IMG/VR virus record: IMGVR_UViG_3300029268_000005
DNA length: 64,000 nucleotides
Source: an uncultured virus (IMG/VR IMGVR_UViG_3300029268_000005)
Lineage: Duplodnaviria; Heunggongvirae; Uroviricota; Caudoviricetes
Strand: one strand, 5' to 3'
In this document: positions 15,942-58,449 of the stretch, piece after piece
Layout: every line of letters begins with the position of its first letter
Position numbering within the stretch: position 1 is the stretch's first letter
Program-made: the position numbers and the translations under genes
Notes under the pieces: model-generated
What the model was told of the DNA's origin: nothing
The model's input: only the letters and a program-made list of their open reading frames with translations
Databases searched by the model: none

Positions 15942-15962
15942 CTATCAACCTCCGTGTTTAGT

Positions 15963-16202
15963 TCAAGCCAACAACTGACACCGCAAACAAGGCGGGTGCA
16001 CTTTTGCACCACATCCGGGACAACGCACAGGATCTTTGGTCGCATCAGGATAATGAATCATAACCGACGTGTCGTCAATGACAACAACGTCCTCAACTGT
16101 GCCCAATACATCGTAGATGTCAGAGAGGTCACACAACAATTTACGCTGAATACGCACCGGCGTATAGCCTTGAGCACTCAGGTCAACAATTGTGTACGCC
16201 AT
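15963..16202 (-). CDS. Small protein with a C-terminal zinc ribbon
   Basis: Start MAYTIV (AAGGAG RBS); RCPGCG..PCLRC. Confidence 0.6.
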   Translation of the reverse strand: MAYTIVDLSAQGYTPVRIQRKLLCDLSDIYDVLGTVEDVVVIDDTSVMIHYPDATKDPVRCPGCGAKVHPPCLRCQLLA

Positions 16203-16210
16203 CTCCTTAG

Positions 16211-16471
16211 TTAAGCATTTGACGATTGCGCCGGCGGATGGGGCCATGTCTGTGTTTGTCCTCTGTCTGGCGGCGGCGTGCCGTCAATGTATTCTTGTAA
16301 CGTAGGCGACGGTAGTGGAGTTACTAGTGGCTGTGTGTTGAGTCGTGCCGCACCCACTTGTCGTCTAGGCTCAGGATTTATCCACTGCGGCATAAGCCCG
16401 CGACGTTGCATGTAGTGATCCATTGCGGCAACAGACGACAAATCTAATGGAAACTCATGCACGTTGGCCAT
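16211..16471 (-). CDS. Hypothetical Pro-rich protein
   Basis: 86 aa, tightly packed in the operon. Confidence 0.5.
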   Translation of the reverse strand: MANVHEFPLDLSSVAAMDHYMQRRGLMPQWINPEPRRQVGAARLNTQPLVTPLPSPTLQEYIDGTPPPDRGQTQTWPHPPAQSSNA

Positions 16472-16473
16472 TA

Positions 16474-17424
16474 TCAGCTACCTGTTATACAGCCTCTATC
16501 TTGCAGCTTAGATCCAAGTACGACTTGATCCATCTGAGCCACACGAGCTTCCAAACTAACCAAGAAATTCTCTAACGTGGTGGCCTGTCTGCCAAACTGT
16601 TCCATTGCCTGAGTCAACGTCTCTAGTTCACTGCAACCGCAGCAAGGTGTTGAGCACGGGTTTGTCAGCTTGAGACCATTGATCATTGTCTCAACCTGCA
16701 AGCACTCAGAACCTAGCAGTGTTAGTCTACCGTTGGCATCAGGCCTGATACCGTTGACGTTTCTGATCGGCGGCGATAATGCGTTACCAATGCATACGCA
16801 ATCGTCATTCAGGCCTTCACCGTCTATTGCGTCTACAACTATCTCAGGATCTGCACCCTCGGCCTGTACAACAGTGAATCGTATGTTTCTACCGGCGCTC
16901 AACACCACGGTGCCAGTCAGAACTTCACTACGCTCCTGACCATTCTGTACGATCACGCCACTGACACCACGAATACTCGGACGAACACAATCAGGCTCTA
17001 TGATCGTGGCGGTAGGATTGAACGTGAATATGCCAGCAGGCTGCTGCACAATATTAGAAAGATCACCCACAACGATATGGCCTGTGGCGTCATAGAAGTC
17101 ACCTTGGCCTAGTAGTCTGTATGACTGCCCATAGGTGTGTGTCGTAGCCGCAAGCATTGCCGACGCTACAGTGGTTGTGGTCGAGCCGTTGTAGTAACCG
17201 ATGACAATGTTGTAACCTGTCGTAAACGCACCAAGAGTGGATACGTAGAATCCGGCAGGATTTACAGAGACACCGGCATTAAGCGACAGATGCAACGATA
17301 GGAGAAAGTCGTTAGGAATGCTAAACGCACCACTTTGGTCTACACCGGCAGCATCAGCCGTCAACGGATAGCGCCGGCTGGCGTTGTGATTCAACCATTC
17401 AAGATTGCGTAAACCAATGGCCAT
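16474..17424 (-). CDS. Virion protein, WxNxNxxRxYP paralog family, with a PCCxC motif and coiled coil
   Basis: WLNHNASRRYPL; TGTVVLSAGRNI; IRNVNGIRPDANGRL; NPCSTPCCGC followed by heptads. Confidence 0.6.
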   Translation of the reverse strand: MAIGLRNLEWLNHNASRRYPLTADAAGVDQSGAFSIPNDFLLSLHLSLNAGVSVNPAGFYVSTLGAFTTGYNIVIGYYNGSTTTTVASAMLAATTHTYGQSYRLLGQGDFYDATGHIVVGDLSNIVQQPAGIFTFNPTATIIEPDCVRPSIRGVSGVIVQNGQERSEVLTGTVVLSAGRNIRFTVVQAEGADPEIVVDAIDGEGLNDDCVCIGNALSPPIRNVNGIRPDANGRLTLLGSECLQVETMINGLKLTNPCSTPCCGCSELETLTQAMEQFGRQATTLENFLVSLEARVAQMDQVVLGSKLQDRGCITGS

Positions 17425-17432
17425 AAAGCTAC

Positions 17433-19232: not shown

Positions 19233-19242
19233 CCGTCCGTGT

Positions 19243-19860: not shown

Positions 19861-19870
19861 AAAGGCTCCT

Positions 19871-22120: not shown

Positions 22121-22122
22121 GG

Positions 22123-23646: not shown

Positions 23647-24114
23647 TCACTTGGCTTGCAGACAGGCCCAAGCAACTGCGTTCAAGGCACTAACCAGAGA
23701 TGCCCGCAACGTAGTGCCATCGGTACGGGGCTTATTGAGGTCAGCCACCTCTAGACCAATTTGCTGCTGCAACACTTGATCAATAGCAGCAGCAAGCCCT
23801 GGTACTTTCGGTGTCAGGATTCCTGCAAAGCGTAGCGTTACAAAACGTGTATTGGCCTCTTTGAAGTCCCTAGTCGTTTTTATAACGCCGGCATCACGCT
23901 GCACAGTATCAGCCAAGGCAGCGTAGGCATAGCCAAGCTCGGCAGCCTGAGCATGACCTTTGAGCAACGTCGTTACAGGCTTAACCGCGTCTTGCAGACC
24001 AGCTGCCGGCGCAGTAATTACCGATGGCGTAACCGTCTCCTGCGGCCCAATCACTCGCGGAGCCACAACCAGAACGAGCGCCAAAGCAAGTAAGATCCCT
24101 CGTAGCTTAGTCAC
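23647..24114 (-). CDS. Secreted or membrane-anchored helical protein
   Basis: Start moved to GTG 24114 after AAGGAGG; N-terminal LLALALVLVVA. Confidence 0.65.
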   Translation of the reverse strand: MTKLRGILLALALVLVVAPRVIGPQETVTPSVITAPAAGLQDAVKPVTTLLKGHAQAAELGYAYAALADTVQRDAGVIKTTRDFKEANTRFVTLRFAGILTPKVPGLAAAIDQVLQQQIGLEVADLNKPRTDGTTLRASLVSALNAVAWACLQAK

Positions 24115-24145
24115 GGCAAACCTCCTTGCCTGCACGGTTTGACCG

Positions 24146-31612: not shown

Positions 31613-34318
31613 TCACGTCGCGCTTGGCGAACTGTCCATTTGTGCACCGCCGCTGACTTCGTTCTTGCCGTCGGACTTCAACTCTAGCGTGCCCGATAAC
31701 ACCAGCTTACCACCACCGCCTACGCCACCAGCGGATTGCGCAGCGGCGGCTGATTCTGCCTGCCTTCCGGCTGCTTCGAGTCTTGGTATCAATTCACCAT
31801 AGAAGTCATTAGGCGATCTGGCGCTGTCTGCCAGCCTACCAAAGTCAGAATCGGCGCCGGCGTCACGAAGAGCATCGCGATCACCCTGGGACAGCTTATC
31901 AACGACTTGTGCGTAAGTGGCATTATCATCAACACCGGTTCTGGACCGCATGCTCTGATAAAGCTGCATCCGCCTAGATACGTCATTCAGGTATTTAAGC
32001 TGGCCTGTACGAGAGGCCCCCTTCTTCATGACGGCGTCTATGGACGACTTGCCCTTGGCATCAGCGCTGACACCAAACGCACCTAGAGCTTTGTCGCGTG
32101 CAGTTTCGTTGGCTTTAACAGCGTCCAAGAAACTATCCGAGGCCGGGCCACCTACGTCTAGATTGGCGGAATGAGATATGTCATTCAATGCGGCTACAGC
32201 ATCGTCAAAGCCCTTGGCCGAAGCTGCGGTATCACCGCCAGCTCGCATGGCTGACGCCTGTGTTCGTAGGTTGGTAAGCGTAGACTCAAGCCTCGCCTTA
32301 TCACCCTCGCTTACAGTGACACCACCCAGTGCGCGAGCCACCAGATCTGGAATTGATGTCGAAGGATCTGAGCTAATCACAGCCTCGGCCAGATTTCTGG
32401 TTATGCTGTTGCTGCCTAATGGCGCTAGCGCACTCTCTAGCTTGGCACCGGCACTGGCAGCGGCATACGCCCGACGACCGCCGTCGCGAACACGGCCATT
32501 TGTTAAAGCCCAAGCATCAACTAGGCTGCTGTTGAATTGTGAGCCTTGCAATGAGTTGTTCATGCTGCCAGTGACAACACTGGACAGACCCATCAATCCT
32601 TCCTCTAGCTTGTCCCTACCGCCGTACCTGTTAATCATCTGACGAGCTGCAGCGGCATTTGGCCCGTTGCCATCAGCGATTGCAGTCAGGTTAGCGGCCA
32701 TGGAGCTGGCCATGTACTTGTCTCGGTCAGCATCGCCTAACTTAGCATTGTCACTCAACGCTGAGGCAGCTTGTCGGGATGATAGTTCAGCGGCCAATGC
32801 ACCTCGCTGCTGGGCGCTACCACCGACACCGGCAGAGTCCAGGGCACCGGCAATAGCCGTACGACCAGCACCGCCAATCTGTTTAAGCACAGCCTGTTTC
32901 TGCAGTGTGCCCTGCACATAGCCTTGGACATTGTTCTCGTGAACGTACTGTTGATTGCTAGACCGCTGGCTGTACATGCGGTCTATATCACCAGCAGCTA
33001 GCCCGAGTGTATTGCCGCTGGCTAGAATGGATGTCATTCGGTCAGAACCAATGTCGCTGATATTAACGTCCCTACCACCAAGCCGCACTGTTCCCTGTCC
33101 GGCCTGTACAGCCTGCATAAGCTTGGCCGCGTCAGAGCCTGCAGTAAATGTTCCAGCGCCGCCCAGGGACTGCATACGATACATTACACCCAGCCTATTG
33201 CTTATGCCGGATGCCGCCGCATTAGCTGACAGGGCCTGGGCAGACTGTGTAAGCTGGCTTAGACCAGACATACCCCACGCCTGCATACCGCCGAGACCAG
33301 CAGAGCTATATCCCGCCATGAATTGCATGCCTGACATCGCTGTGCTGGCCGAGAAGGCTGGGTTTAGGCCTAATGAGCCTGTCATCTGTATGGCTGACTG
33401 CTGTAACGCCACAGCGCCTTCTAGGCCTATGCCTACGTGCTGTGCCATTCTGTTTGTGGTTCGAACTAGCATCTCAGCGCTGCCAGTCGACATCTGCTGC
33501 ATGCCACCACCGGTCAGGCCGTCCAGAGCTTTCAGCAGCTGCCCCATAGGTGCGTTGGGCTTGCCGGCCTCGCCAAAAATCTCGGACATAGCCGAGACGA
33601 CTTTCTCGTAACCCTTCAACGTTCGAATGACTTTACCGGAATCAATCGATCCAGCCTTGTCTCCACCTACCCCGCCAGACAAGTCGCCAAATACACCTCG
33701 CTGCTGCTGTGCGCCAAACAGGGCACCCTGCTGACCCATACTTAACGTACGGTCCCTGTAGTTGTCTCCAGCATACATGCTCTGCTGGATTTGGTTGCCT
33801 AACGTCGTAACAGTCTCGACGCCTAGCCCCAATCGTCCGGTCATCGGATCTATCATGTTCTGACCGGCTGTCATCAGATGACTAGCCAGCACAGTACGAC
33901 TACCGCGACGACCACCAAAGCTATCAAGGAAGTTAGGCGACATTCGCGCCATCATTGGCGCTGCGCCGGCAGCTGTATCTGCCAGCGTGTTGGCTGCTGC
34001 TTCTGTCTGGTCATTCCAGGCAATGCCGGCGATATTGGCACTACCGCGCAACCAGCCCCTGAACATCGCACGTTCGTCAGGAGCAGCCGCACGCATGGCA
34101 GCGTCGTGCATCAGCGAGAAGCGCTGCTGCTCCATACGCCGATACGGATTCCGACCAGTTAGCCCGCCAAGGAATAGACCGTGGTTGTTGGCGTAGCCTG
34201 ATAACAGCGCGCCACCAATGGCCTGTATGCCCATGGCCATAGGGTCACCACCGCCATCAAGGCCTTCAAGACCGTTGTATGACGGGCTCATGCTGAACGG
34301 CCAGTTATCGCTTGCCAT
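31613..34318 (-). CDS. Tape measure protein
   Basis: 901 aa, Gly/Ala/Met-rich and helical, directly after a frameshift-linked chaperone pair. Confidence 0.7.
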   Translation of the reverse strand: MASDNWPFSMSPSYNGLEGLDGGGDPMAMGIQAIGGALLSGYANNHGLFLGGLTGRNPYRRMEQQRFSLMHDAAMRAAAPDERAMFRGWLRGSANIAGIAWNDQTEAAANTLADTAAGAAPMMARMSPNFLDSFGGRRGSRTVLASHLMTAGQNMIDPMTGRLGLGVETVTTLGNQIQQSMYAGDNYRDRTLSMGQQGALFGAQQQRGVFGDLSGGVGGDKAGSIDSGKVIRTLKGYEKVVSAMSEIFGEAGKPNAPMGQLLKALDGLTGGGMQQMSTGSAEMLVRTTNRMAQHVGIGLEGAVALQQSAIQMTGSLGLNPAFSASTAMSGMQFMAGYSSAGLGGMQAWGMSGLSQLTQSAQALSANAAASGISNRLGVMYRMQSLGGAGTFTAGSDAAKLMQAVQAGQGTVRLGGRDVNISDIGSDRMTSILASGNTLGLAAGDIDRMYSQRSSNQQYVHENNVQGYVQGTLQKQAVLKQIGGAGRTAIAGALDSAGVGGSAQQRGALAAELSSRQAASALSDNAKLGDADRDKYMASSMAANLTAIADGNGPNAAAARQMINRYGGRDKLEEGLMGLSSVVTGSMNNSLQGSQFNSSLVDAWALTNGRVRDGGRRAYAAASAGAKLESALAPLGSNSITRNLAEAVISSDPSTSIPDLVARALGGVTVSEGDKARLESTLTNLRTQASAMRAGGDTAASAKGFDDAVAALNDISHSANLDVGGPASDSFLDAVKANETARDKALGAFGVSADAKGKSSIDAVMKKGASRTGQLKYLNDVSRRMQLYQSMRSRTGVDDNATYAQVVDKLSQGDRDALRDAGADSDFGRLADSARSPNDFYGELIPRLEAAGRQAESAAAAQSAGGVGGGGKLVLSGTLELKSDGKNEVSGGAQMDSSPSAT

Positions 34319-34790
34319 ATCGGCGCTTCCTTGCTGGTGTCACAGGCCTGCTAACCGGCCGACGCTGCTTACTCTCTCTGGCCTCTTTATGTCGGGCCAA
34401 CATGGCAGCGGCAGCTGCTTCGATCTTTTTGCGAACTTCAGGATCGTTGCTATCACCGAAGCGTTTGTTCCAGCCACCGACCATGGCCTTAACTGAACGC
34501 CTATTAGCATCTTCCCTGTTTTTGGTTGTTTCAGGGAAGTACATATTCTGCAGTTCATTCAACAGATCGAATGATCCGTCTCGCGCATAGTTGAAATAGC
34601 TGTCCTCCAGGTGATTGATTTGTAGAAACGCTAGATTATGCTGCAGCAGCAGTTTCAGCATTTCTACCTTTTGCTGCCTATCGAATTCGCGCAACACTAG
34701 CGATTTATGAAGCCCCCACTGTTGATCAAACGGCTTGCATTTGCTGACATCTAAGCGCCCGGCTACGGCGGCCCTTACAAGTAGGCTCAA
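34305..34790 (-). CDS. Tail assembly chaperone, frameshifted (GT-type) part
   Basis: Weak TTG start with no RBS; in frame with a -1 shift at A AAT TTC (34808-34814). Confidence 0.65.
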   Translation of the reverse strand: MSLLVRAAVAGRLDVSKCKPFDQQWGLHKSLVLREFDRQQKVEMLKLLLQHNLAFLQINHLEDSYFNYARDGSFDLLNELQNMYFPETTKNREDANRRSVKAMVGGWNKRFGDSNDPEVRKKIEAAAAAMLARHKEARESKQRRPVSRPVTPARKRRYGKR

Positions 34791-38712: not shown

Positions 38713-39204
38713 TCAGGTGCTGTAAATCAGCGAACTGAACATGAGTCGCAACGACTCATTGATCAACATGTCCGCTGAAGTAACACCGACGCCGACAGTC
38801 GTAATGACGCAGAAGTAGCATTCATACGACACCGTGGACATCGACGTGGTATCACAGCCGCTGGTAAGTTCCATGTGCACAGTGTTTCCATCCGCAGCGC
38901 AGATGTCGCCGTACGTCTGGTAGAAGGCTGCCGTGATGGTCTTCGGGCCGATAACGCGCTCGATAGACACCTCGCCAGCCGTTCGGCCGCCCACGTAGTA
39001 TATGCGCGGCTGTCCGACCTCGTAAAGCCTGGTGATCTGCTGTTGATAGCTCAGCTGCAGGCGCTGAACAAGCAGTCCAACATCGGCACCAAGCTGAATG
39101 TCGGCAGACCCGTCGGTAATACGAGGAAACGTCAGTGTGGCCTGCTCTGCAGAGAAAGCACCACCGAACGTATCAGAGTTGCGATTGAAGACGTCTCTAC
39201 TCAT
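38713..39204 (-). CDS. Tail tube protein
   Basis: 163 aa directly downstream of the sheath; LVQRLQLSYQQQITRLYEVG; strong RBS. Confidence 0.8.
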   Translation of the reverse strand: MSRDVFNRNSDTFGGAFSAEQATLTFPRITDGSADIQLGADVGLLVQRLQLSYQQQITRLYEVGQPRIYYVGGRTAGEVSIERVIGPKTITAAFYQTYGDICAADGNTVHMELTSGCDTTSMSTVSYECYFCVITTVGVGVTSADMLINESLRLMFSSLIYST

Positions 39205-39225
39205 TTTTTGCCTCCGTGCTGGGTT

Positions 39226-39253
39226 GAGATGTAATTAGCGCTAATTACATCTC
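39226..39253. promoter_or_regulatory. Palindrome copy 3 (perfect 28 bp)
   Basis: GAGATGTAATTAGCGCTAATTACATCTC, between the sheath and tube genes. Confidence 0.9.
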
Positions 39254-39260: not shown

Positions 39261-42062
39261 TTAGCCGACAACCAAGTGCGATTCGATATTGTTCAAGGCA
39301 TGCGGCAGTGACAGCGTAGTGTCGATCACGATACGGTTGGCCAGCGTGCTGTGCCGACGGATATCGTCAATCGTGCCTTCGATAAGCTGCGCACCAAGAT
39401 GTCGGACGTAATTACGTCCAGTCAACACCTTGAACGCGGCCTTGAGCTCGCTGCGTATCTTGGTGATCAGCGAGTCGGAAACATTCGAGATACCGACGTA
39501 CGGATTGTACACTTCGTCCAAGAAGTACGAGATGGAGTCCAAGTTACGGGTGATGGACTCTTCTCGCTCGTTGTCGTCGTCCGTACTGCCGGTAGTGACA
39601 GCATGTCGCGTGTAGACCGCGCCACTACGCGGATTGGCAGTCACAAGCCACACACCGTTTCCAGCCATCGAGTTCAACTGCGTGTAACTGAACGCAGTCG
39701 TACGCGACATGTCGTCGAATCCAGCCAACGAGACACGCGTCATCGGTTGGTGCGGCAAGATACCGCCGGACTGTGCGGACAAGGCCGCGCACAAATGGTA
39801 TCCGGCAAACGTGTAACCGCTGCCACCAACAGAATCAGGCCACACAGCGCGGACACGGCGAGTGCTGAATCCGTGCTGCAGAGGAATCTCGATAGCCCGC
39901 TGCGTGTTGTTAAGTGAGCGCCAAATCTCAATCTTCTGCGGCGTGTTCACTGCAACGGTATTGCCGGAATACAGACGAATGGTGTCCTCGTTGATGACGG
40001 CATCAACAATGAACTCCGTGTAGCTGACGTTGTCCCAGCCGTCCGTCGTATACAGGTAACGGACCACATCGCCGGCAGTGACGTTATTGGCAACAAAGTT
40101 ACCGTTGCCCGCAGGCACTTCCAGCCACGTGTATTGCGTGCTGGTTGTGTACGGGTCATCACTGAGCTTGGCCAAGACCTCTTCGCCATCCTCAGAGGTG
40201 GCAGTGCTGACCACAGCCTTCTCAGCCACATCGTCCAGATTGATCCACAACACGCGCCAGCGGGCGTATTCAGGAGTGGACATTGTGGCCACGTGAGCGG
40301 CAAACAAGCCCCACACGGTGGCGTTACGGGTCAGAGGGACGAGGCCATACAGCCTGTCTTCTCCACCGATCACGTCCAGCGCCTGAGCCCAGCTGTCGAC
40401 ATCGGACGGGTCACTGACAGCCGTGAAATAGACCGGCACGCCGTTGTTGTTCTGCAGGCCCATGTACAAGGCCCACTTCAACTCGTTGTCAGGGTGAGTA
40501 GCGCCGGAAACAGCGGTGTCCAGATCTTCAGGATCTGCCACGTTGTACACAGCGTCCACCAGATCGGCCAGCCATGCACGATACTCCACAAACAGCTGAC
40601 CGTAGCCCTTGCTGGACTCAGAGATGACGTCCAAGGCCATAGCCGTTCCGCCATCCGTCCAGGTCTCGTCGTAAGCCACGAGAGAGTCGTTGACGGTAAG
40701 CTGCGTCGCAGACTGCTCCCAATTGACCAGAGGGGCAAATCCAGTTCGTTGTTCACCGATCTGGATGTCCTTCATGATGTACAACGACAGATCAAGTTCG
40801 ACTGCCGTGCCAGAGCTGGCAATTGCGCTGGGCAGGTTATGCCCGAGCACCAGGGTCCTGTAGGCCCCATTGCTTTCAGCTGTGGCTTCGATGGAATAGC
40901 GGTCACCCTTGCGCAGACCAGCTTGGCTGAACGCAACGGTGATGCCCTTCGTTCCAACAACAACAGCAGAACCAGCCGCCGTGACATTGGTCGGACCACT
41001 GATATCAACACCACGGTCGGTGGTGACAGTAATCTGCGGAACATCGACCCACAGGCCACCCTTCGTGACTTCGATGATGTAAGTCACGTCTTGCGTACCT
41101 GTGTAGTTTCCACCCGACGTAGCCACAGGTGCCGTCCAGGCTTGTCCAACGACAACTTCCCACTCCTGGCCGACAACAAAGTCTGAAGGCGACACGCCAT
41201 CGACGTCAGCCGACAACGAGCACTCTTCACTGCCGGTGTTGTCCCAGGTGACGGTGACACCACGGTCACCAATCGTTGTCGGAACACCAAAGGCCGACGG
41301 AGTAACGTCGGAGTCATTGTCACGGCCAGACAGCGAGGTCACGCGAAGCTTGGCAGTCGTGGCGTCACCATCAATCGAGCCTTCAATGACACGAATCGTG
41401 TAAGTCTCGTTGATGTCGCCATCGGCAAGACCATCGTAAGCTGCCGAAGACGTAGCCGTAACGGTGACACAGTTCTCTGCGCCATCTTCCTGGGTGGTAG
41501 CGGCAACAGGGGCAGACTGCGTGCTAACATTACTGGCGTCTGCAACTGCAGAGCCGATAACATCGGCAACAGTCTCGGCCACAAAGTCCTTGACGTACGT
41601 CCACAGCTCGTAATCGACATCGGCAACCACGGCACGAACCTTGACGATATCGCCAGGCGTGACATCGCGGTCGTAGAAGTCGGCAGAACGAGGATAGGAC
41701 ACGCCATTCGACTTGAAGCTCAGCGTCGGGCTGGTGATACGGCTGGCTCGCGACGGCACGGATTCAATGGTATCGCCGCCACCGATGGTGTCGGTGAAGT
41801 AGCGCAGCAAGGCATTGTCCATGTACAGCTTGGTATAGGCCGCATCAATCACACCGCCGGCAGGGCGGTTAGGCCAAGCGTAATCCGTATCGGTCAACGG
41901 ATCGTAGTAGCCAAGATAACCCTCTTGCTTCTCATCACTCTCAGCATAGCGAACGAGCTTGGCATGCCCGCCCGTGTAGTGTGCGGGTAGTTCCGGCGTG
42001 GTCGCCGAGACAGACTTGTTGAAGTCCTGGTAAATCAGATTGCCGGGGACGATGTACGCCAT
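39261..42062 (-). CDS. Contractile tail sheath protein
   Basis: N-terminal MAYIVPGNLIYQDF; C-terminal HQPMT..QLNSMAGNGV..YTRHAVTT..REESITRNLD..LPHALNNIE. Confidence 0.9.
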   Translation of the reverse strand: MAYIVPGNLIYQDFNKSVSATTPELPAHYTGGHAKLVRYAESDEKQEGYLGYYDPLTDTDYAWPNRPAGGVIDAAYTKLYMDNALLRYFTDTIGGGDTIESVPSRASRITSPTLSFKSNGVSYPRSADFYDRDVTPGDIVKVRAVVADVDYELWTYVKDFVAETVADVIGSAVADASNVSTQSAPVAATTQEDGAENCVTVTATSSAAYDGLADGDINETYTIRVIEGSIDGDATTAKLRVTSLSGRDNDSDVTPSAFGVPTTIGDRGVTVTWDNTGSEECSLSADVDGVSPSDFVVGQEWEVVVGQAWTAPVATSGGNYTGTQDVTYIIEVTKGGLWVDVPQITVTTDRGVDISGPTNVTAAGSAVVVGTKGITVAFSQAGLRKGDRYSIEATAESNGAYRTLVLGHNLPSAIASSGTAVELDLSLYIMKDIQIGEQRTGFAPLVNWEQSATQLTVNDSLVAYDETWTDGGTAMALDVISESSKGYGQLFVEYRAWLADLVDAVYNVADPEDLDTAVSGATHPDNELKWALYMGLQNNNGVPVYFTAVSDPSDVDSWAQALDVIGGEDRLYGLVPLTRNATVWGLFAAHVATMSTPEYARWRVLWINLDDVAEKAVVSTATSEDGEEVLAKLSDDPYTTSTQYTWLEVPAGNGNFVANNVTAGDVVRYLYTTDGWDNVSYTEFIVDAVINEDTIRLYSGNTVAVNTPQKIEIWRSLNNTQRAIEIPLQHGFSTRRVRAVWPDSVGGSGYTFAGYHLCAALSAQSGGILPHQPMTRVSLAGFDDMSRTTAFSYTQLNSMAGNGVWLVTANPRSGAVYTRHAVTTGSTDDDNEREESITRNLDSISYFLDEVYNPYVGISNVSDSLITKIRSELKAAFKVLTGRNYVRHLGAQLIEGTIDDIRRHSTLANRIVIDTTLSLPHALNNIESHLVVG

Positions 42063-42095
42063 GGATTGTGCCTCCGTGCGACAGGCAGAAAGGTT

Positions 42096-49356: not shown

Positions 49357-49394
49357 CGTGTTTTCTCCTATTACGAGGCTAGTTATGCGACACG

Positions 49395-49435
49395 AAAACG
49401 CTGCGTCCCCCATATTCTTTCGGAGGACGCAGCGT
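49395..49435 (-). terminator. Hairpin plus U-tract
   Basis: ACGCTGCGTCC / GGACGCAGCGT stem followed by TTT. Confidence 0.7.
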
Positions 49436-49478
49436 ATTGGAAGAGAATTTCGCCAGAAAAGTACACAATCTGACGAAA

Positions 49479-49949
49479 TTATTCTTTGCCAGCTGCCGAT
49501 TTGGCCCGCTTTGTGATCACGGACCACGCAAAATTGGACAATGCTTTTCCTATGTGCCAGCAAACGAATACCGACACCAGTAAGGCACCTAGAGTGCATA
49601 GCGAATCGTCACGATTCGAGCCCTCGTTACGCACTACGGCTCGCGTACGAAGGCCGTCCTCCTCTGTTAGAGCCTTGACGCTAGAGAAGCGTCCGTTCAG
49701 CTCTTGGTTGTTGCTGCTGACGTCAGTAGACAAGTTGTCTAACTTGGCCGATAGGGTGACCAGTCGAGCATCTAGCCCGCTCATGCGGGCTGCCAAAACG
49801 TTGGCCTCATCGCTGATCTTGCCCATCAGCACGTTCTGACCGGACACGACTTGCCCGGTTGTGCGGCCAATGTAGCTTGCCAGCAGCACAGAGAACAACG
49901 CAACAACAACGAGAATTACGGTGGTGTGAATAGCGGACTTGTCATTCAT
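49479..49949 (-). CDS. TM-coiled coil-TM membrane protein (paralog 1)
   Basis: N- and C-terminal hydrophobic helices with heptads between them. Confidence 0.75.
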   Translation of the reverse strand: MNDKSAIHTTVILVVVALFSVLLASYIGRTTGQVVSGQNVLMGKISDEANVLAARMSGLDARLVTLSAKLDNLSTDVSSNNQELNGRFSSVKALTEEDGLRTRAVVRNEGSNRDDSLCTLGALLVSVFVCWHIGKALSNFAWSVITKRAKSAAGKE

Positions 49950-49985
49950 CTTGAATCCCCTTGGCTAGTTAGGGCTAGAGCAAAC

Positions 49986-50561
49986 TCACGAACGTACGGT
50001 CAGCTTCTTAATAAGCTGCCATATCTTACGCGACAAGAACTTTAGTGCGTGCCAGCTAACTAGCACGCCGATAAGCACGGCAACAGTGAACCATGGAATC
50101 TCTTCCGTGCAGGTAACGACATGGTATCTCAGATTGCTTATCGAATCCTTCTGAGACACCAGTCGGTCCAGAATCCGGTAGTCATGCTCATGAGCCTCCT
50201 TCGAAAGAGTCTCGACCGATTTCTGCAGCTGCATGATCATGTCGACCGGAGGTCGTTGATCACGGAGAAGCTTTTTCATCTCCTCGTGATCCTCGGCGTA
50301 TACGCGCGCCGAGTTCTTCAGAAGGTTCTCTAATGCCGTCAACCGGCCTAGGACACTGTACACCTCGTCCAGCACTTTTTGATTATCGCTGGTAGGTGCT
50401 TTGACCGTGTCCGACGGCGCAAACACAGCCGGTGTGATGCAGTCCACGGCGCGATGTTCGCTCTGCTTGAGCCTTTCAGGCTCACTAGGTGCCAGGGCGT
50501 AAAAGCCCACGGCCACCAGTGCCATGACCAACACGACGAACAAGATCTTTTGAGTCTTCAT
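49986..50561 (-). CDS. TM-coiled coil-TM membrane protein (paralog 2)
   Basis: Start MKTQKIL; C-terminal GVLVSWHALK resembles SVFVCWHIGK in paralog 1. Confidence 0.75.
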   Translation of the reverse strand: MKTQKILFVVLVMALVAVGFYALAPSEPERLKQSEHRAVDCITPAVFAPSDTVKAPTSDNQKVLDEVYSVLGRLTALENLLKNSARVYAEDHEEMKKLLRDQRPPVDMIMQLQKSVETLSKEAHEHDYRILDRLVSQKDSISNLRYHVVTCTEEIPWFTVAVLIGVLVSWHALKFLSRKIWQLIKKLTVRS

Positions 50562-50603
50562 GAAACATTCCTTTTGGCTAGTGACGTGATGACAAAACAT
50601 ACG

Positions 50604-50993
50604 TTACGCTGATTGCTTTGCTGCCAACTCTGCTCGTGCCGCCTTCCAGGCACGAATTATGTTGCGTATGCACAGGTATACGCCCATAGCAGATAGTATC
50701 AACACGGCCGTATTCCATGTCGATTCCTGTACGATCGTGCGTGTATACACATGATCCGATGTCGCCTCCTTAGAGGCATTGGATTGTATCTCGCGCCACT
50801 TGGCGGCTGTGCTGTGTGTATCTGCCTGCAGCGTTGTAAGCTGCATTCGCACCTCGTTGATGACCTTGTCTCGCTGACGTTCAGCGGACATGATCGAATT
50901 CAGTGTACTGGTGTTCGACGACACCAACAGCAGTGTACACAAACTCATGGAGACAGTTGCCGTCATGCAGACGGACATGTATTTGCTAATCAT
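50604..50993 (-). CDS. TM-coiled coil-TM membrane protein (paralog 3)
   Basis: Same topology; YTRTIVQE resembles RTRAVVRNE in paralog 1. Confidence 0.7.
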   Translation of the reverse strand: MISKYMSVCMTATVSMSLCTLLLVSSNTSTLNSIMSAERQRDKVINEVRMQLTTLQADTHSTAAKWREIQSNASKEATSDHVYTRTIVQESTWNTAVLILSAMGVYLCIRNIIRAWKAARAELAAKQSA

Positions 50994-51151
50994 GACATCT
51001 CCTAAGGCTAGTTAGGTGGTGAAAAACTACTGGCTGAGGGACAGCAGGGCCTGCGCCCCGCAGTAAACCGTCCCGGCCAGAATCAGAAGCTTGACCACCG
51101 ACATGGCGATCACAGACACCACGCTATCTACGTGAGCTGACTTACGCATGT

Positions 51152-52141
51152 TTACTCCTTAAAGAGGGCGGGTAGTAACTGAACGGCTAGCTCCCGGCTG
51201 AGATGCAGCCGGAAGGGTTCGTTGCTGATGATCCCATGTTGAGGGCCGCGCCCAGGGATCTCAGCGACAGTTTCACGCAGGTCGATACCGTCGTGTAGGG
51301 CGGTGAATATGACCTGCTTGGTAGACAGTCGGGATGCAATTGCACCCTTTGTGCTGATGACGACCAGCACATCTGCATTCAGGTCGACAGCCGTGGCCTG
51401 TAGAATGTGGCTGTCGAACTTGTCGCTGACGTTGGATACGTCCAGCACGGCCCATCGGCGGTCGTACACCGTCGAGATGCGCATGCTGTCCAACACGTCT
51501 AACGTGTCCCGCACCACAACGTCGTGGTTCAGCGCCATGACATTCAGACGCTTCTCAGCTTCGCGGCCAACCAACATGTCCACAAACAGCTGGTAGGCTT
51601 CCTGATGGCCGCGCGCATCTTCGCGCTGCAATACGGCCGTCGACCTAACGAATAGCTGGCCGATATCTGAGAAGAGATGCAGCTTGGCCGCATAAGACGG
51701 CCCGTCCAGCCGCATCGCATCCTCAACCAAATCGACGTAGGTGAGGCCTACGGCGCGCAGTGCTGCAAACAGTCCATCGCCGTCGGCGTGAGCGATGATC
51801 ACATCTTTGTCGCCGATGCAGCCGATATCGATCAGCTGGGCACAGGCTAGAGCGTTCTTACGGGTGACACACAACGCGTCTACTAACGGCCGTGCCCGTA
51901 TTAGCTCGTATACGTCATCGTACAACTCGCTGCCGGTATCTGGTTTGTGATGGTCACGTACCATCACCTTGTGCTTCATCGCTAGGTCTGAAATCAGATC
52001 ATGGCACACCACTGGCGACAGATCGGCTATCAGAACCTTGGAGGCACCCTGGCAGCATCGGATCAGTACCGACGATATCTGTTCGATTTCAGACGGCTGG
52101 ACGAACATCGCCAGCGTCTTACGAAGCATTAACGAAAACAT
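51152..52141 (-). CDS. DHH-like phosphoesterase with permuted motif order
   Basis: VLIADL, VRDHH, then IIAHADGDG. Confidence 0.55.
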   Translation of the reverse strand: MFSLMLRKTLAMFVQPSEIEQISSVLIRCCQGASKVLIADLSPVVCHDLISDLAMKHKVMVRDHHKPDTGSELYDDVYELIRARPLVDALCVTRKNALACAQLIDIGCIGDKDVIIAHADGDGLFAALRAVGLTYVDLVEDAMRLDGPSYAAKLHLFSDIGQLFVRSTAVLQREDARGHQEAYQLFVDMLVGREAEKRLNVMALNHDVVVRDTLDVLDSMRISTVYDRRWAVLDVSNVSDKFDSHILQATAVDLNADVLVVISTKGAIASRLSTKQVIFTALHDGIDLRETVAEIPGRGPQHGIISNEPFRLHLSRELAVQLLPALFKE

Positions 52142-52172
52142 GAAAAACTCCTAGGCTAGTGTTGCGATACAT

Positions 52173-52213
52173 AAAAAAGAAAGACCGACCGGCGTTTGCC
52201 AAGTCGGTCTTTC
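52173..52213 (-). terminator. Intrinsic terminator
   Basis: GAAAGACCGAC / GTCGGTCTTTC stem followed by TTTTTT. Confidence 0.8.
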
Positions 52214-52234
52214 CGTGGCGACCTCTGAGTCGGC

Positions 52235-53068
52235 CTACAAGTCGGAATACTTATAGTCGGCTAAGAACGCCAACGCCGCCTCGCGGCGTTGCGTAGTCGG
52301 TTCGTACAGGAACCGGTGCGCCGGACTATCCGACGAAGTATTATGGTTCGACCAGAACGTCCTCAGGTCGAATCCAGACTCGGCCATAATGGCTATGTAG
52401 TCGTCTAGCCACAAGCCTGCACGCCAGCAGGCTAGCGCATGTGACGATACGCCGTCGCCGGTGTAAATGGCCGGCATCATGATGCCTCCATCTTGCTGAC
52501 GAATAGCCAGCAAAGGGAAGGCCGAAAACGACGTCATGGCCGTCAGAAGAATCTGACAGAGCCCGGCTGCTGGCAATGTTGTAGACGCCGGCAGCTGCGC
52601 TCCAATGGCCCACAGATCGTTCTGAAGACGGGCCATTGGGTTGTCCTCGAACTTGACCTCGTCGGTTTCCGGGTCAAGTAGCATGGCATGGCCGTCCGTG
52701 ACCACCGCATGTACCTGATTGCCAATCAGGCACACCTGTCGCTCTTCCGCCGTCATGGCAGCCAGCTTGGCCATCAGCTGCTCATGATCATCGAGCCTGT
52801 CATGCGACGGCACGGACCCCGTAAGGTCCGTCAGCGGAATGTCCAGACAGGACCAGTTGTTCTGATCCATTGTACGGACAACGTCCAGTGAACGACTGCG
52901 CATGACAGCCCTGGACAAAGCTGTCAGCGCTTTTGGCAGCATGGTCCTTGGCGCTTGCTGCTGGCTTCTTTCCAAGCCAACGAGCTTCTCCACCAGCACC
53001 GGCATATTGACGATGCTGATGTTCCAGGGCCACCCAAACGGGCGTTCCTTCGCAAGCTTCATACTCAT
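52235..53068 (-). CDS. Accessory hypothetical protein (start may be ATG 53062)
   Basis: 277-aa ORF; AAAGGA RBS and ACTAGCC box. Confidence 0.7.
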   Translation of the reverse strand: MSMKLAKERPFGWPWNISIVNMPVLVEKLVGLERSQQQAPRTMLPKALTALSRAVMRSRSLDVVRTMDQNNWSCLDIPLTDLTGSVPSHDRLDDHEQLMAKLAAMTAEERQVCLIGNQVHAVVTDGHAMLLDPETDEVKFEDNPMARLQNDLWAIGAQLPASTTLPAAGLCQILLTAMTSFSAFPLLAIRQQDGGIMMPAIYTGDGVSSHALACWRAGLWLDDYIAIMAESGFDLRTFWSNHNTSSDSPAHRFLYEPTTQRREAALAFLADYKYSDL

Positions 53069-53399
53069 TCCTTTACACTAGTGAGGGCTAGTAAAAATGG
53101 CCTCCGGACGGATCACTAGCCTAATCCGCCGGAGGCCCCACACCACAAAACTCAATAATAGCGCCCTGTTCTGGCTCCTATGGCCAGCACTCAGGGTCTG
53201 TTACCACGGAGTAAAACTGCAAGTTAAGAACGAAGCTAACACACTGGATACCTGTAGGGCAGGCCGGTCAACCGCAAGCGGTCCACATTTATCGGCGTTC
53301 GTTGCCCTAACAGGCTCCAGTGCCAGCGGCAGGAGCCACCGCCGTTGCGACCCCTGTGTAACTTTTTTGCCGAATTACACAGAGGTAAGCGCTCCTGAA

Positions 53400-53696
53400 C
53401 TACACTCCGTCGTTCCACCAGGCCTGCTGGCTCGGTAGCCACGTGGCCTCCTCGCGCCACGTCCGTCCACCGTTGACGTTATCACCGCCCCTGGCCACAA
53501 AGTGCGCCGACTTTGACGGGTCGATCACGCGAACAAGGTCCGGACCCGAAACGAATCCGTTGTCGCGGACTCCTTCGGTGACGCAGTTGATGCAGCAGAA
53601 CACTTGACCCCAGCAGGCACCGCTGCCGAAGTAGGAGCGGCCGTAGATGTGCCCTAACTCCCGCGTCAGGACTACCTCTTGTACGTTCGTTGACAT
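53400..53696 (-). CDS. Accessory hypothetical protein
   Basis: Start moved to MSTNVQ (AAAGGA RBS and ACTAGCC box). Confidence 0.65.
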   Translation of the reverse strand: MSTNVQEVVLTRELGHIYGRSYFGSGACWGQVFCCINCVTEGVRDNGFVSGPDLVRVIDPSKSAHFVARGGDNVNGGRTWREEATWLPSQQAWWNDGV

Positions 53697-53965
53697 CGCA
53701 AAATTCCTTTGGCTAGTGACTATAAACACAAAACAGACCGAAAGGTCTGATAATTGGCGCCTGCCGCAAGTAGGGAGACCTACGGCAGGTTCGTTGCACA
53801 GGTACCGTAGCAGGCCTGGAGTTATCCAAGCCTCCACAGCGTAAAAGCAACGAAGGACTGCAATGCCGGACTGCAGTCATAAGATGGCAGCGACCTCAGA
53901 ACTATGTCCGGTCGCCGCGTATTAAGGCGGTACTAAGCTAAAGTCGATATGCCAAGGAGATTGGA

Positions 53966-53991: not shown

Positions 53992-54068
53992 CTGATCCGT
54001 GGCAGCGACGATAGCTAGTTAGCGCCTCCAATATAGTATGACGCGTTTTGGGCCTTTATTTACCAATG

Positions 54069-54106
54069 AAAAAAGCCGGCAGGTGCCTCATGCACCCACC
54101 GGCTTT
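54069..54106 (-). terminator. Intrinsic terminator ending the head operon
   Basis: AAAGCCGG..CCGGCTTT stem followed by a U-tract on the minus strand. Confidence 0.8.
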
Positions 54107-54124
54107 GCCAACCTTCCGTGGTTG

Positions 54125-54478
54125 TCAGACGCGGTATTCCATCTCCGAATCGGTCAGGCTCGTAAGCCAGCACGGTGCGGCGACAGCCAGCGTGTTGTTA
54201 TTCAGCACGAGCATCTGGGACTGATCCAGAGTAGCATCGTACAGAATAGGAGCAGGAGTCGACACAAGCTCAAGCCACCCAGCTTCGAGGGCCTCGAAGA
54301 ACTTCTGCACGCCACGGGCGCCGAAGATCCGACCAATGGTATCGACGACATGGCCGCTAATCGAGACTTCCTCGTTGTTGTCCAGCTCAGCCCCGTGGGG
54401 CGGCACAATGCTAATCTTGCGCTTCGAGCCGGCAACATTGCGAATGGTGGACACCAAACAGCTGATATCAACAGCCAT
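54125..54478 (-). CDS. Putative head-associated structural protein
   Basis: 117 aa, CACGGAGG RBS, follows the capsid genes. Confidence 0.6.
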   Translation of the reverse strand: MAVDISCLVSTIRNVAGSKRKISIVPPHGAELDNNEEVSISGHVVDTIGRIFGARGVQKFFEALEAGWLELVSTPAPILYDATLDQSQMLVLNNNTLAVAAPCWLTSLTDSEMEYRV

Positions 54479-54543
54479 GGTTTTCCTCCGTGATCATCCA
54501 CACTTGCTAACAGCCTCGCGGCCGTTCGAAAAAGCTGGCAATG

Positions 54544-55065: not shown

Positions 55066-56007
55066 TCAGATGAACTCGGCTCGGGCCACGGCGTTGGTAT
55101 TGCCGATGGTGCAGCCGTTCTCTTCGTACGCAAAGAACTCAATCATGAAGGCTTTGCGCTCGATGAACATCGTGACCGGTTCCAACTCAAAATGCTTGCC
55201 AAGGAACTTCGGGTCGGCAAACAGGTAGATGTTGTTCGTCTCGACGATGTCCTTCTTGATCGTGACGATCCAGTCGATGCCCATGAAACGCTGCAGCGAC
55301 CAACCATCACGCATCACATCCATCGACAAGTCGCCGCCCATTTCGTCTCGGCGGAACTTACCAACTTCCTTGATGGTCAGCATATTGCAGACCGCCAACT
55401 TGGTCTCAAGGCAGCTGGGCGTCGAAGGCAGAATCTTCAGCATGTCCCAGAGGCTGTCGCGGTTGATCCCGCCGCCGATCTGTTCGTACTGAGCCACACC
55501 GGACGTGGGCAAAATGACACCAGGGCCAACAATAGCGTTGTTGACGGCCCGGAACCATTTGGCGTCCTCTTCCGCCAACATGTCCTTGATAGCATTATCA
55601 GAGAACACCTGGCGAATATCCATGACCCAAGTACGCAACTCGGACACGTCCTTGGTGAAGCGGGTCGTCATGATCCGCTCGAAACCAACGGGGTAGCGAG
55701 GTCCCTTGATGTACATGTTGCTGGGCAACATGGCGAAAGGAACGCTGACAGCCGCCGGAGAATCCGGTTCCTTGTCGATGATCTTGATCGGCTTGTCGTC
55801 TTCGATCATGCGGTCAAGGTCGTCGGTGATAGTCACCGGCGGGAGAATCTTTCGGAGGACGCCATCTTCACGCATCTTGTAACGCGTGTAGTCGTTGGCG
55901 GCATCCACAGCTTCTTTGCGCTGTTGCCAATCGGTAGAACCGAGCTTTTCGCAAAGCACCCGGTTGACCACCTTCGGGTCCAGGCCTTCTTCCAAAAGGG
56001 CGCTCAT
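55066..56007 (-). CDS. Major capsid protein (HK97 fold by inference)
   Basis: 313 aa after protease, scaffold and decoration genes; MREDGVLRKILPP..KDMLAEED..PKFLGK..FFAYE..IGN; start MSALL after CACGGAGG; hairpin downstream. Confidence 0.8.
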   Translation of the reverse strand: MSALLEEGLDPKVVNRVLCEKLGSTDWQQRKEAVDAANDYTRYKMREDGVLRKILPPVTITDDLDRMIEDDKPIKIIDKEPDSPAAVSVPFAMLPSNMYIKGPRYPVGFERIMTTRFTKDVSELRTWVMDIRQVFSDNAIKDMLAEEDAKWFRAVNNAIVGPGVILPTSGVAQYEQIGGGINRDSLWDMLKILPSTPSCLETKLAVCNMLTIKEVGKFRRDEMGGDLSMDVMRDGWSLQRFMGIDWIVTIKKDIVETNNIYLFADPKFLGKHFELEPVTMFIERKAFMIEFFAYEENGCTIGNTNAVARAEFI

Positions 56008-56052
56008 ATGCACCTCCGTGTTAGCTAAGTTTCAGTGGTGTCCGTACCAATA

Positions 56053-56643
56053 TCAGCTTTCGAGACCGCTGACGCTAGTCGTCAGCTTCGGCAGCCAGAC
56101 AGGCCAGAAGGCCAGGACATTGCGACGGAAAGTGTTCGCACGAACGGCGCGGCTGACCACACCGCAAATCGGCTTCTCGTAAGCAGCGGCCCTGGTAATA
56201 CGGCCACCAGTAGCGGCATCCGTGTTGCTAGCAACGGCCGTGAGGCAGTCACCAGGAGCATAGGTGTCGCCAAGAGACGACTCGGGTTCGAACTCCGTGG
56301 TCTCCAGCTCCATGGCCGCAGCGGCGGCAAAGCCACCGATGTTGCCAGAGGGCGTGGCCGCCACGTAGACGTCGGCCTCGGTGGCCGGATCGCCGCCACC
56401 GACGGTGACGTCGTTGTCGGTCGAGGTCTGGAAGAGGAAGATCGCCATGTGACCAGCCTGCACAACGTCAGGCAGCCCCATCTCGTAGTCCCCGTCCGCA
56501 TTCAAGTGAGCCACGCGACCGCCCCACACTTGGTCGATGGTCACAACAGACGCAAGCTTCGCCACGAAGTCCACCGCTTGCTGGCTCGGCCAGCCCTTCA
56601 GCGGGTTCAGACCGTGGACAGTCATTTGGGTAGGAGTCTTCAT
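56053..56643 (-). CDS. Putative head decoration/cement protein
   Basis: Directly upstream of the MCP; ELETTEF..YAPGDCLTA..ICGVVS. Confidence 0.65.
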   Translation of the reverse strand: MKTPTQMTVHGLNPLKGWPSQQAVDFVAKLASVVTIDQVWGGRVAHLNADGDYEMGLPDVVQAGHMAIFLFQTSTDNDVTVGGGDPATEADVYVAATPSGNIGGFAAAAAMELETTEFEPESSLGDTYAPGDCLTAVASNTDAATGGRITRAAAYEKPICGVVSRAVRANTFRRNVLAFWPVWLPKLTTSVSGLES

Positions 56644-56686
56644 ACTGCTGTTCCTCCGTGAAAAGAAATCGTCGGTGGACGAAAGG

Positions 56687-57133
56687 TCAGCTCGTCAGAC
56701 CAAGCTTAGACAGGAAAGCTTGATCAGCCGCGCTGGGAGCTCCACGCTCACCGATGTAGTTAGGGTTGGTTCGACCAACAGCTGAGGCGCTCTTTTCGGG
56801 AACGCCACGGCCCTGCTGAAGCATGGCCACTTTTTGCTGCAGCTCAGTAATCTGAGCGGCGTGTGCCGTACGTTCGGCTGCCAACTTTTGGCAAATACGG
56901 CGAATGACACGTAGCGTCCCAGGATGCTGGTTCAGGGTCTCTTCGGCCAGCTTCGATTCCTTCTCAGGGTCGAACAACTGCACGGAGACCATCGCCTTGA
57001 GCGCCTCAGGGATGGCCGAGGTAACTTCCGCAGCTTGCTTCTCTTGTTGAGCAACAAGGTCCGAAGCCGCAGCAGCAATCTTTCCCGTAGTCTCGACATA
57101 GCCGAGCACTTGGGTAGTCAATGCTTTATCCAT
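56687..57133 (-). CDS. Scaffold-associated coiled-coil protein
   Basis: Heptads; KQAA, KSAS; C-terminal ADQAFLSKLGL. Confidence 0.6.
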   Translation of the reverse strand: MDKALTTQVLGYVETTGKIAAAASDLVAQQEKQAAEVTSAIPEALKAMVSVQLFDPEKESKLAEETLNQHPGTLRVIRRICQKLAAERTAHAAQITELQQKVAMLQQGRGVPEKSASAVGRTNPNYIGERGAPSAADQAFLSKLGLTS

Positions 57134-57156
57134 GGAATCCTCCGCAATATCGATGC

Positions 57157-58404
57157 TTACTTACCGCACAGGTCAGTAATAGACTTGAGAATGGCCTGAA
57201 ACTGTTGAGCCTGTGCCGCATTCTTCGGTTGCCACTTGGGCTTAGCCGAAGCCTGCTTGTTGGCCATTTGAACGAGTTTGGCAGCTGCCTTGGCCTGAAC
57301 CGCAGCAGGATCAACGTTGGCCTGCGACAAGGCTTCCTGCAGCATTGCAAGCAGATCGGCTTGCTGACCTTCACCGCCGGCCATGCCGGCAAGAGCAGCG
57401 TCGCCACCTACGTCGCCCATCGGGGGCATTCCCTCAGGGCCTGCGCCCATCGGAGGCTCTCCCATCGGAGGAGCGCCACCACCGCCGGCCCCGCCAGCGC
57501 CCTGCAGAAGCTGCAGCAGGAGCTCAGGAGGGATCTCGTCGCCGCCACCGGCCATTCCCGCAGGAGCAGCGCCTGGCATGTCGCCCATCGGGGCTTCCGC
57601 CGCAGGATCTTCCGTCATCGAAGGCTCAGACGACTCGGTCTCTTCCTTCGGAGGCTTCGGATCCTCTTCTTCGGAGTCTTCACACTCCTCGGCCTGCTTC
57701 TGCGCTTGTGCGAAAAAAGCATCGTAGTAGTCTGCCAGCTTGGTAGCAGCTTCGTCGGCTATCAAGATGGTGTCGCGCAGAGACGTGACAACACCAGCCA
57801 CTTCGGCTTGCTTGTCATTGGCCGCAGCACCAACAACGGCTTGAGCCAAGGCGGCACCGGCCTGAGAAGCAGCCTTGGAAGGCTGAGCCGGCTTCTGAGC
57901 TTCCTTGTTCGAGGAGTCAAACGCCACAGCCAGCTTCGCAAGGATGCTTGTCCCCTGCGCATTGGCCTGATTGATAAGCGTTCGAAGCTCAGCAAACTTC
58001 TTCCCGTCTAACGAACTGTTGTCGGTACGGGCGGGGTGGCTGGATCCGGGATCGTCCTTCTCGGATTTGGCCGAGGAGGTTTCGTTGCTCGGATCTTCGC
58101 CAGTGGCCGCAACGGTAGCTCCGATATTCATCTGGAACTGATCCTGCGTACCAGGCGTGTTTTCCTTGGCGTTGTTGACGCCAATGGGTTGATCATCCTT
58201 GTTGTCCTTTTCGTTCTCCGAAGAACGAGCACCTTCTTGCGCAGGTGCAGTTCCATCATCGACGTTCTTGGACGGATGGGTCGTAGCGCCGCCAATGTTA
58301 GCGGGCTCACTGTTTGCCGAAGCCGACTTCTCCGGATTAACTTGCTGCAGCAAAGCAGCAATGCTGTTCCGAAGACTGGCTTGCTTATTGAACAAAGTAG
58401 TCAT
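57157..58404 (-). CDS. Putative prohead scaffold/core protein
   Basis: Low-complexity acidic and Gly/Pro-rich, with many KxA motifs; follows the protease. Confidence 0.65.
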   Translation of the reverse strand: MTTLFNKQASLRNSIAALLQQVNPEKSASANSEPANIGGATTHPSKNVDDGTAPAQEGARSSENEKDNKDDQPIGVNNAKENTPGTQDQFQMNIGATVAATGEDPSNETSSAKSEKDDPGSSHPARTDNSSLDGKKFAELRTLINQANAQGTSILAKLAVAFDSSNKEAQKPAQPSKAASQAGAALAQAVVGAAANDKQAEVAGVVTSLRDTILIADEAATKLADYYDAFFAQAQKQAEECEDSEEEDPKPPKEETESSEPSMTEDPAAEAPMGDMPGAAPAGMAGGGDEIPPELLLQLLQGAGGAGGGGAPPMGEPPMGAGPEGMPPMGDVGGDAALAGMAGGEGQQADLLAMLQEALSQANVDPAAVQAKAAAKLVQMANKQASAKPKWQPKNAAQAQQFQAILKSITDLCGK

Positions 58405-58449
58405 CCTTGAAATCTCCGTAGGATGATGAATGTGCTGTCTCGCAAAGTG

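Follow-up and report, generated by a model that had tools for sequence, protein, structure and literature searches.

The window analysed here comprises bases 1-64000 of the virus record G000, a jumbo phage record of 133,466 bases with an estimated completeness of 65%. On its minus strand lies a set of virion genes whose ribosome-binding sites share a short hairpin motif resembling the operators of the RNA-binding proteins CsrA and RsmE. The major capsid protein gene (55066..56007; 313 amino acids [aa]) matches phrog_2522 at E 1e-3, and its family profile matches the capsid protein of PDB 6wkk at E 1e-4; the gene starts at the ATG at 56007, which corrects an earlier placement, and not at the GTG at 56013. 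The neighbouring 196-aa gene (56053..56643) has no PHROG or Pfam match, and its identity as a capsid decoration or cement-like protein is a lead based on feature-search neighbours, Phage_cement families being found on 10-28% of the members of its Atlas neighbours. For the 933-aa tail sheath protein (39261..42062), 8 of the 21 aligned orthologues match the tail sheath family phrog_279 (best E 4.5e-12); the G000 protein by itself has no phrog_279 match, and a PDB search with the sheath profile returned nothing relevant. The 163-aa tail tube protein (38713..39204) resembles Phi812_tail_tube and Phage_tail_2 in Atlas structure matches (TM 0.66-0.70), and the tail-fibre-like gene (14232-15941) has collagen and tail-fibre matches. 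The last gene of the capsid operon (54125-54478; 117 aa) belongs to no family, and the gene at 57157-58404 is labeled as a putative scaffold from its position only. The “scaffold” label of the first-pass annotation of this DNA, like the “protease” label used below, is based on gene order only.

Hairpin sites at the starts of virion genes

The sequence CACGGAGG occurs seven times in the window, six times on the minus strand and once on the plus strand, against an expectation of 1.86; a count of seven was reached in 1 of 100 shuffles. The six minus-strand copies (at 15949, 39211, 42071, 54485, 56013, and 56653) each lie 5-9 nucleotides (nt) upstream of an ATG, on the Shine-Dalgarno (SD) sequence, and each is flanked by bases that can pair with one another, A-U or U-A in four cases and G-C in two. 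The capsid gene (ATG 56007) carries A-CACGGAGG-T, a hexaloop site, at 56012..56021; the decoration gene (ATG 56643) carries TT-CACGGAGG-AA at 56651..56662; the sheath gene (ATG 42062) and the tube gene (ATG 39204) carry G-CACGGAGG-C at 42070..42079 and 39210..39219; the last capsid-operon gene carries T-CACGGAGG-A at 54484..54493; and the collagen-containing tail-fibre-like gene carries AA-CACGGAGG-TT at 15947..15958. The G000 sites conform to the CsrA/RsmE operator motif, (A/U)CANGGANG(U/A) or an ANGGAN loop.

Additional sites of the same kind, also on the minus strand, vary in their position relative to the start codon. The putative scaffold gene has two GGA sites within 58401..58420, T-ACGGAG-A on the SD and T-CAAGGATG-A (58402-09) over the ATG at 58404. 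A 155-aa gene that begins at the GTG at 24114 and has no family carries G-CAAGGAGG-T (24121-28) on its SD; five additional pairs form when G-U is counted, giving a 6-bp G-U-rich stem (24116..24133). A further candidate, G-CAAGGAAG-C, lies at 34325..34334 ahead of a 901-aa gene at 34318, also without a family. In the 3' untranslated region (3'-UTR) of the capsid operon, a 5-bp hairpin with an ACGGAA loop (54109..54124) stands between the stop codon and an intrinsic terminator at about 54068-54106. The nine sites reported by the first-pass annotation, among them the T-CAAGGATG-A and G-CAAGGAGG-T sites and the 3'-UTR hairpin, are all real, with their positions and flanks as it described. It overlooked a second ANGGAN hairpin in the capsid leader (56036..56049), which has 4 bp and an ACGGAC loop, lies 26 nt upstream of the first GGA, and is present in both the minimum free energy (MFE) and the centroid fold. 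With two such hairpins, a single CsrA dimer could span both sites.

Two elements of this type lie elsewhere on the minus strand of G000. A paired TA-CACGGAGG-TA occurs within a coding region, ahead of out-of-frame ATGs (81090-81097), and a terminator-like 12-bp hairpin followed by a U tract has the CsrA-type loop ACGGAU (about 120615-120647).

Enrichment and flank pairing within the genome

The start-site statistics use our own minus-strand calls of 145 genes, in which the choice of start was blind to the prefix. Among the 24 starts in G000 with GGAGG, nine have a CAN prefix (P 3.6e-5). The outer flanks are paired in all nine of these (eight Watson-Crick, one G-U) versus 6 of the 15 others (Fisher 0.007), and a flank permutation test on the CAN-prefixed starts gives 0.002. 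Seven of the nine are the earlier reader's own picks; the two outside the window (88818, a gene with a weak holin match, and 88475) are both paired, as are both sites that the sister record G001 has in sequence lacking from G000. More generally, CANGGANG is paired in 12 of 13 occurrences at ribosome sites versus 26 of the 69 that lie at other places on the coding strand (P 4e-4), and the nine listed sites have a covariation score of 0.61 versus 0.16 in shuffles (0 of 500), with a third pair formed in just four of them. The genome-wide check that had been proposed for these sites therefore places flank pairing well above chance, as it also is in relatives.

We found that only one of the six CACGGAGG hairpins, that of the tube gene, appears in the MFE fold of the free RNA, and that for the capsid and fibre leaders the predictions include competing folds in which the SD is buried. 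The near-absence of the hairpins from the free-RNA fold fits a clamp induced by protein, without proving it.

Conservation and covariation in relatives

Relatives were gathered by capsid alignment, which kept 80 of 105 loci, namely 79 relatives and the sister record G001; a single-protein search over viral contigs had returned the sister record only. When the capsid genes are grouped into 37 clusters (95% identity, single linkage), CANGGAGG is found at the capsid SD in 30 clusters, with the second pair formed in 28 of them (20 A-U, 7 U-A, 1 G-U) and the third pair additionally formed in 22 of the 30. Among unique 16-mers, the second capsid pair is formed in 29 of 33, versus 18.2 in shuffles (maximum 26 among 5000). 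Mapped on the capsid tree, the second pair switches type 7 times and the third 11 times, and the A at loop position 1 is conserved in 37 of 44 capsid leaders. The middle base of the site is variable, being C, U, or A. The decoration gene has the SD hairpin in 23 of the 34 clusters with a GGAG anchor, 22 of the 23 being paired (13 A-U, 9 U-A), and the sheath gene has the motif in 16 of 26 relatives, with a G-C second pair in 15 and a third pair in 13 of 16 versus 8.0 in shuffles. The shuffle comparisons for sheath, capsid, and tube used 30 loci from 34 records, and the shuffles ignore relatedness. As a control, the protease-like gene has the hairpin in 0 of 17.

Hairpins with at least four Watson-Crick pairs number 64 on the coding strand versus 3 on the opposite strand, in 39 of the 80 loci. 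The scaffold orthologues mostly have an AAGGAG hexaloop (second pair in 31 of 52 versus 19.3 in shuffles) or a site just after the ATG. The upstream second hairpin is present in 5 of 64 capsid leaders, including that of G000, and in none on the opposite strand. Altogether, a short-stem GGA loop with compensatory changes is found for capsid, decoration, and sheath. The covarying flanks described by the first-pass annotation thus hold for these three genes in relatives; the tube, 54478, and 3'-UTR sites, which it had also listed, are poorly conserved.

A CsrA encoded by the phage

The first-pass annotation had suggested a search for csrA in phage and host, and the gene was found in the phage itself. 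It encodes 59 aa, lies outside the window at 90169-90348 of contig C1 of G000 (minus strand; locus L001:1465-1644) among non-structural genes, and matches PF02599 at 78-79 bits, against a cut-off of 27. The closest PDB match of the protein is RsmE (2jpp). It carries L2, L4, R6, and R44, which we take to be the RNA-binding residues of CsrA, and has L at position 43, where 10 of 38 phage copies have H. Across the 38 of 40 csrA loci that could be parsed, L2, R6, A36, R44, and E46 are present in every copy, and 11 copies have a hairpin of at least 3 bp on their own SD. In G000, the csrA SD lies within a 3-bp AAGGAG hairpin. A csrA match is present in 36 of the 79 relatives and in 22 of the 23 records that are at least 90% complete.

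Variants of the gene occur among the relatives. Tandem two-domain CsrAs of 163 aa (L093, from G007) and 142 aa (L097, from G014) are possibly single-chain dimers, and a divergent second type with a longer loop is found in several relatives (L104, L107, L108), being the sole type in G005.

We scanned 11 relatives genome-wide for sites (G007, G034, G074, G009, G012, G017, G005, G045, G032, G024, and G004). Paired CANGGAGG starts are frequent in four that carry csrA, with 23 of 26 in G007, 14 of 17 in G034 (first 200 of 204 kb), 7 of 7 in G074, and 4 of 6 in G009; the value for G000 is 8 of 8. In G012, which is complete and lacks csrA even by family profile, 1 of 4 such starts is paired, and in its sister G017, which has a csrA remnant, 0 of 3. 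G005 (86% complete), with its divergent csrA, has 1 of 4. The sheath and tube sites are gone in all three. A strict correlation of csrA with sites was rejected, as the correspondence among the 11 relatives is only partial; about two independent losses are suggestive of a link between csrA and the sites, and do not prove it. The largest set of sites belongs to G007 and includes its RNA polymerase gene.

Other features of the record

Family searches left most of the phage proteins without an assignment. G000 encodes RNA polymerase beta and beta-prime domains with the NADFDGD motif. At 66614-80019 (L160), this is a two-gene multisubunit enzyme in which beta and the part of beta-prime with the catalytic motif share one open reading frame (ORF) of 2197 aa; both ORFs have LAGLIDADG domains, and one has Hint (intein-like) matches. 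Auxiliary genes at 85070-124619 encode an adenylosuccinate synthetase, a ThiF and JAB-like pair, a protein kinase, a 2H phosphoesterase/LigD protein, and a PAS-domain membrane protein, and rmlA-D-like genes in the same region were assigned by eye from their translations.

Two other repeats were seen. A perfect palindrome with the core AATTAGCGCTAATT has nine copies, mostly intergenic or just ahead of starts, at 14201, 25334, 39233, 53972, and 63509 of the window and at 86680, 100523, 109497, and 124064 of G000. The copy at 39233, with a 12-bp arm and a fold z of -4.5, lies directly upstream of the CsrA-type site of the tube gene. The first 70 kb of G001 has six matches and 11 other relatives have at most one apiece, and the palindrome is a candidate operator or small repeat element. 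The motif ACTAGCC, a candidate promoter-like or processing motif, stands shortly before the SD of small non-structural genes on the minus strand within window 49383-53717 (at 53717, 53092, 52160, 51012, 50582, 49969, and 49383).

Interpretation of the sites

From the sequence evidence, the hairpins are real and conserved, and they are very probably sites for a protein of the CsrA family. The further reading, that the phage CsrA represses translation of the phage's own virion mRNAs, is the one we favour, with a probability of roughly 0.6. The first-pass annotation had proposed that a CsrA-family protein gates translation of the virion proteins. Both computational refutations that it named, chance pairing of the flanks and an explanation by the host 16S rRNA, failed, and the phage proved to have a csrA of its own; binding, repression, and the assignment to phage rather than host protein are what we infer from these data.

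Several observations weigh against the favoured reading. The stems in G000 are only 2-3 bp long, and, as described above, five of the six CACGGAGG hairpins are missing from the free-RNA fold. The test with independent pairs had one supported pair, too few to reach significance. The tube site is present in just 8 of 22 relatives, with no covariation signal among those eight, and the 54478 site in just 3 of 20 clusters. The 3'-UTR hairpin has one clear counterpart before a terminator (in L010) among 48 3' regions, and its role as a conserved sponge was rejected on that count. In the comparison across relatives, G045 and G032 have csrA and yet show 0 of 2 and 0 of 1 paired sites, while G024 (89% complete) and G004 (84%), whose recovered parts contain no csrA, show 4 of 5 and 8 of 17; in addition, G012 and G017 are sisters and represent one loss. 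The likely host phylum has CsrAs of its own. Finally, in one assay of natural CsrAs against a canonical target, about half gave no repression (PMC13443453).

Could the sites instead be ordinary or extended SD sequences, or a product of chance? GGAGG is indeed an ordinary SD, and the stems are short. Where the flanks form the common A-U pair, its U also lengthens the SD, which counts for this explanation and against ours; the U-A and G-C versions do not extend it. We lean to Planctomycetota as the host phylum, with bin labels that disagree (Gemmataceae, Planctomycetota, Nannocystaceae, Nanopelagicales, Alphaproteobacteria), and the 16S comparison depends on that assignment. Of 121 sampled genomes, 93 matched, and 30 Planctomycetota loci were read from these; the 16S tail is CACCUCCUUUCU in 28 of the 30 and has a CCUCCG end in none. 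Such a tail would favour AAAGGAGG, so that the C's in the prefix cost SD pairing. On these tails, and for this presumed host, the CAC prefix as an extended SD was rejected, as was the proposal that the 16S end explains CACGGAGG. The varying middle base of the site also argues against an extended SD, and the enrichment and flank pairing in G000, together with the covariation in relatives, argue against chance. We consider this the least probable of the explanations. Scarcely more probable is recognition of the GGAG loop by another RNA-binding protein or nuclease resembling RegA or RegB of T4. RegB of T4 cleaves GGAG in SD regions, and the many phage proteins without a family leave room for such a factor; against this, the motif is the full CsrA consensus, a CsrA is encoded in the same phage, and RegA (PF01818) was not found in G000 as far as the record is complete, with no search made for RegB.

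In the main rival explanation, the sites are again CsrA operators, but the proteins that bind them are chiefly CsrA paralogues of the host, which would couple virion synthesis to host physiology; the phage CsrA would then target host mRNAs, in line with the anti-defence role that has been proposed in the literature, or would liberate the late mRNAs by acting as a decoy or heterodimer partner. G024 and G004, with sites but no phage csrA found, and G045 and G032, with csrA but no paired sites, speak for this explanation. CsrA is prevalent in Planctomycetota (PMC13443453), host and phage CsrA presence are correlated (PMC8450108), and the Gemmataceae bin G081 contains six CsrA matches, some possibly from the phage contig. 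However, the G024 and G004 records are incomplete, most of the sites have disappeared from the one complete relative that lacks csrA and from two whose csrA is a remnant or divergent, and the phage proteins retain the RNA-binding residues, with the hairpin on their own SD in 11 of 38. We regard this rival as unlikely. Less probable again is that CsrA promotes expression by protecting or remodelling the mRNA, or that the hairpins present the SD in a loop for strong initiation without any protein. It would seem costly to repress the most abundant virion genes, which are the ones that carry the sites; the competing folds predicted for the capsid and fibre leaders bury the SD; and knock-down of csrA in an unrelated phage gave smaller plaques (PMC11879866). 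On the other hand, the RsmE-hcnA structure shows the SD sequestered by a site that lies on it (PMC5668361), and a generic loop would need neither the C-G closing pair nor the conserved A at loop position 1, which make up the CsrA code.

A model for repression by the phage CsrA

Under the reading that we favour, the phage CsrA would probably be made early, because csrA lies among non-structural genes, and would bind the hairpins on the ribosome-binding sites of virion genes and block ribosome loading. By clamping a stem of 2-3 bp as RsmE does on hcnA, it would suppress premature translation of capsid, decoration, sheath, and other late proteins, and through the similar hairpin on its own SD it would probably limit its own synthesis. 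Release would probably occur by titration, once the sites supplied by late transcription outnumber the CsrA dimers. We favour titration because no FliW was found in the five phage records searched and no CsrB-like clustering of GGA hairpins was seen in either G000 or, over its first 70 kb, G001, these being incomplete records; Rfam gave no match within the window. In G004, two apparently non-coding stretches rich in GGA hairpins at about 101800-102800 (minus strand) could be a sponge RNA or a chance result of 66% GC.

This model has partial precedents. RsmE binds (A/U)CANGGANG(U/A), with ANGGA folded into a loop on a 3-bp stem and the SD clamped (PMC5668361). The RsmE-hcnA complex of Pseudomonas (PDB 2JPP) is thus alike in motif and in the placement of an ANGGAN loop over the SD, and the hcnA core UCACGGAUGA differs from the phage CACGGAGG only in the last loop base (PMC5668361). 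Unlike in that system, the regulator is here encoded by a virus, with that virus's virion mRNAs as the candidate targets, the phage sites often have a G-C second pair (sheath), and no Gac/Rsm small RNA was found. In Campylobacter, CsrA represses flaA by way of hexaloops similar to CANGGANG, of which two are separated by 21 nt, and is itself titrated by flaA mRNA (PMC4894983, where Bacillus hag is cited). The likeness to this CsrA-FliW-flagellin system is that the mRNA is that of the most abundant structural subunit and that the phage capsid leader has two hairpins 26 nt apart; the differences are the lack of FliW in the records searched and the rarity of the second hairpin among relatives (5 of 64 capsid leaders). 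In Pseudomonas putida, translational repression by Rsm of the type VI secretion mRNAs (hcp, tss) likewise concerns a contractile sheath-and-tube machine, but one whose control is cellular and under GacS and small RNA (bioRxiv 10.64898/2026.07.10.737732).

Phage-borne csrA was described in 30 phages (PMC7366521), many further genes were reported with a proposed anti-CRISPR role (PMC8450108), and in one phage knock-down of csrA (PTXU04_00028) led to small plaques, the role of the gene being called previously untested (PMC11879866). In their accessible text, these papers propose host manipulation or anti-CRISPR functions and name no targets, whereas here candidate targets lie in the phage's own genes; in the open-access literature, which leaves subscription journals uncovered, we found no paper on CsrA sites in a phage's own genes. 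The record resembles the mReC phages (PMC7481178): both are jumbo phages whose RNA polymerase has beta and beta-prime domains and NADFDGD. mReC capsids matched PF07068, whereas the capsid protein of G000 does not, nor do any of the 40 aligned capsid proteins at E 0.1, and we regard G000 as a possible mReC member only.

Phage csrA genes have been catalogued since 2020, and the present data provide a specific and conserved set of candidate targets, the phage's own capsid, decoration, and sheath mRNAs. Since these candidates and the 59-aa protein are known, the question can be tested on short RNAs without phage culture. More tentatively, and with the odds somewhat against the scheme in its full form, a family of jumbo phages that encode RNA polymerase may control its late programme by a threshold switch built on a CsrA of its own that regulates itself. 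CsrA made early would silence the virion mRNAs until these titrate it, without a small RNA or FliW; hairpin strength would set the order and stoichiometry of head and tail proteins; and some members would have expanded the scheme to more than 20 genes with a single-chain tandem CsrA. If repression by the phage CsrA is true, a captured bacterial global regulator controls the late genes of these phages at the level of translation.

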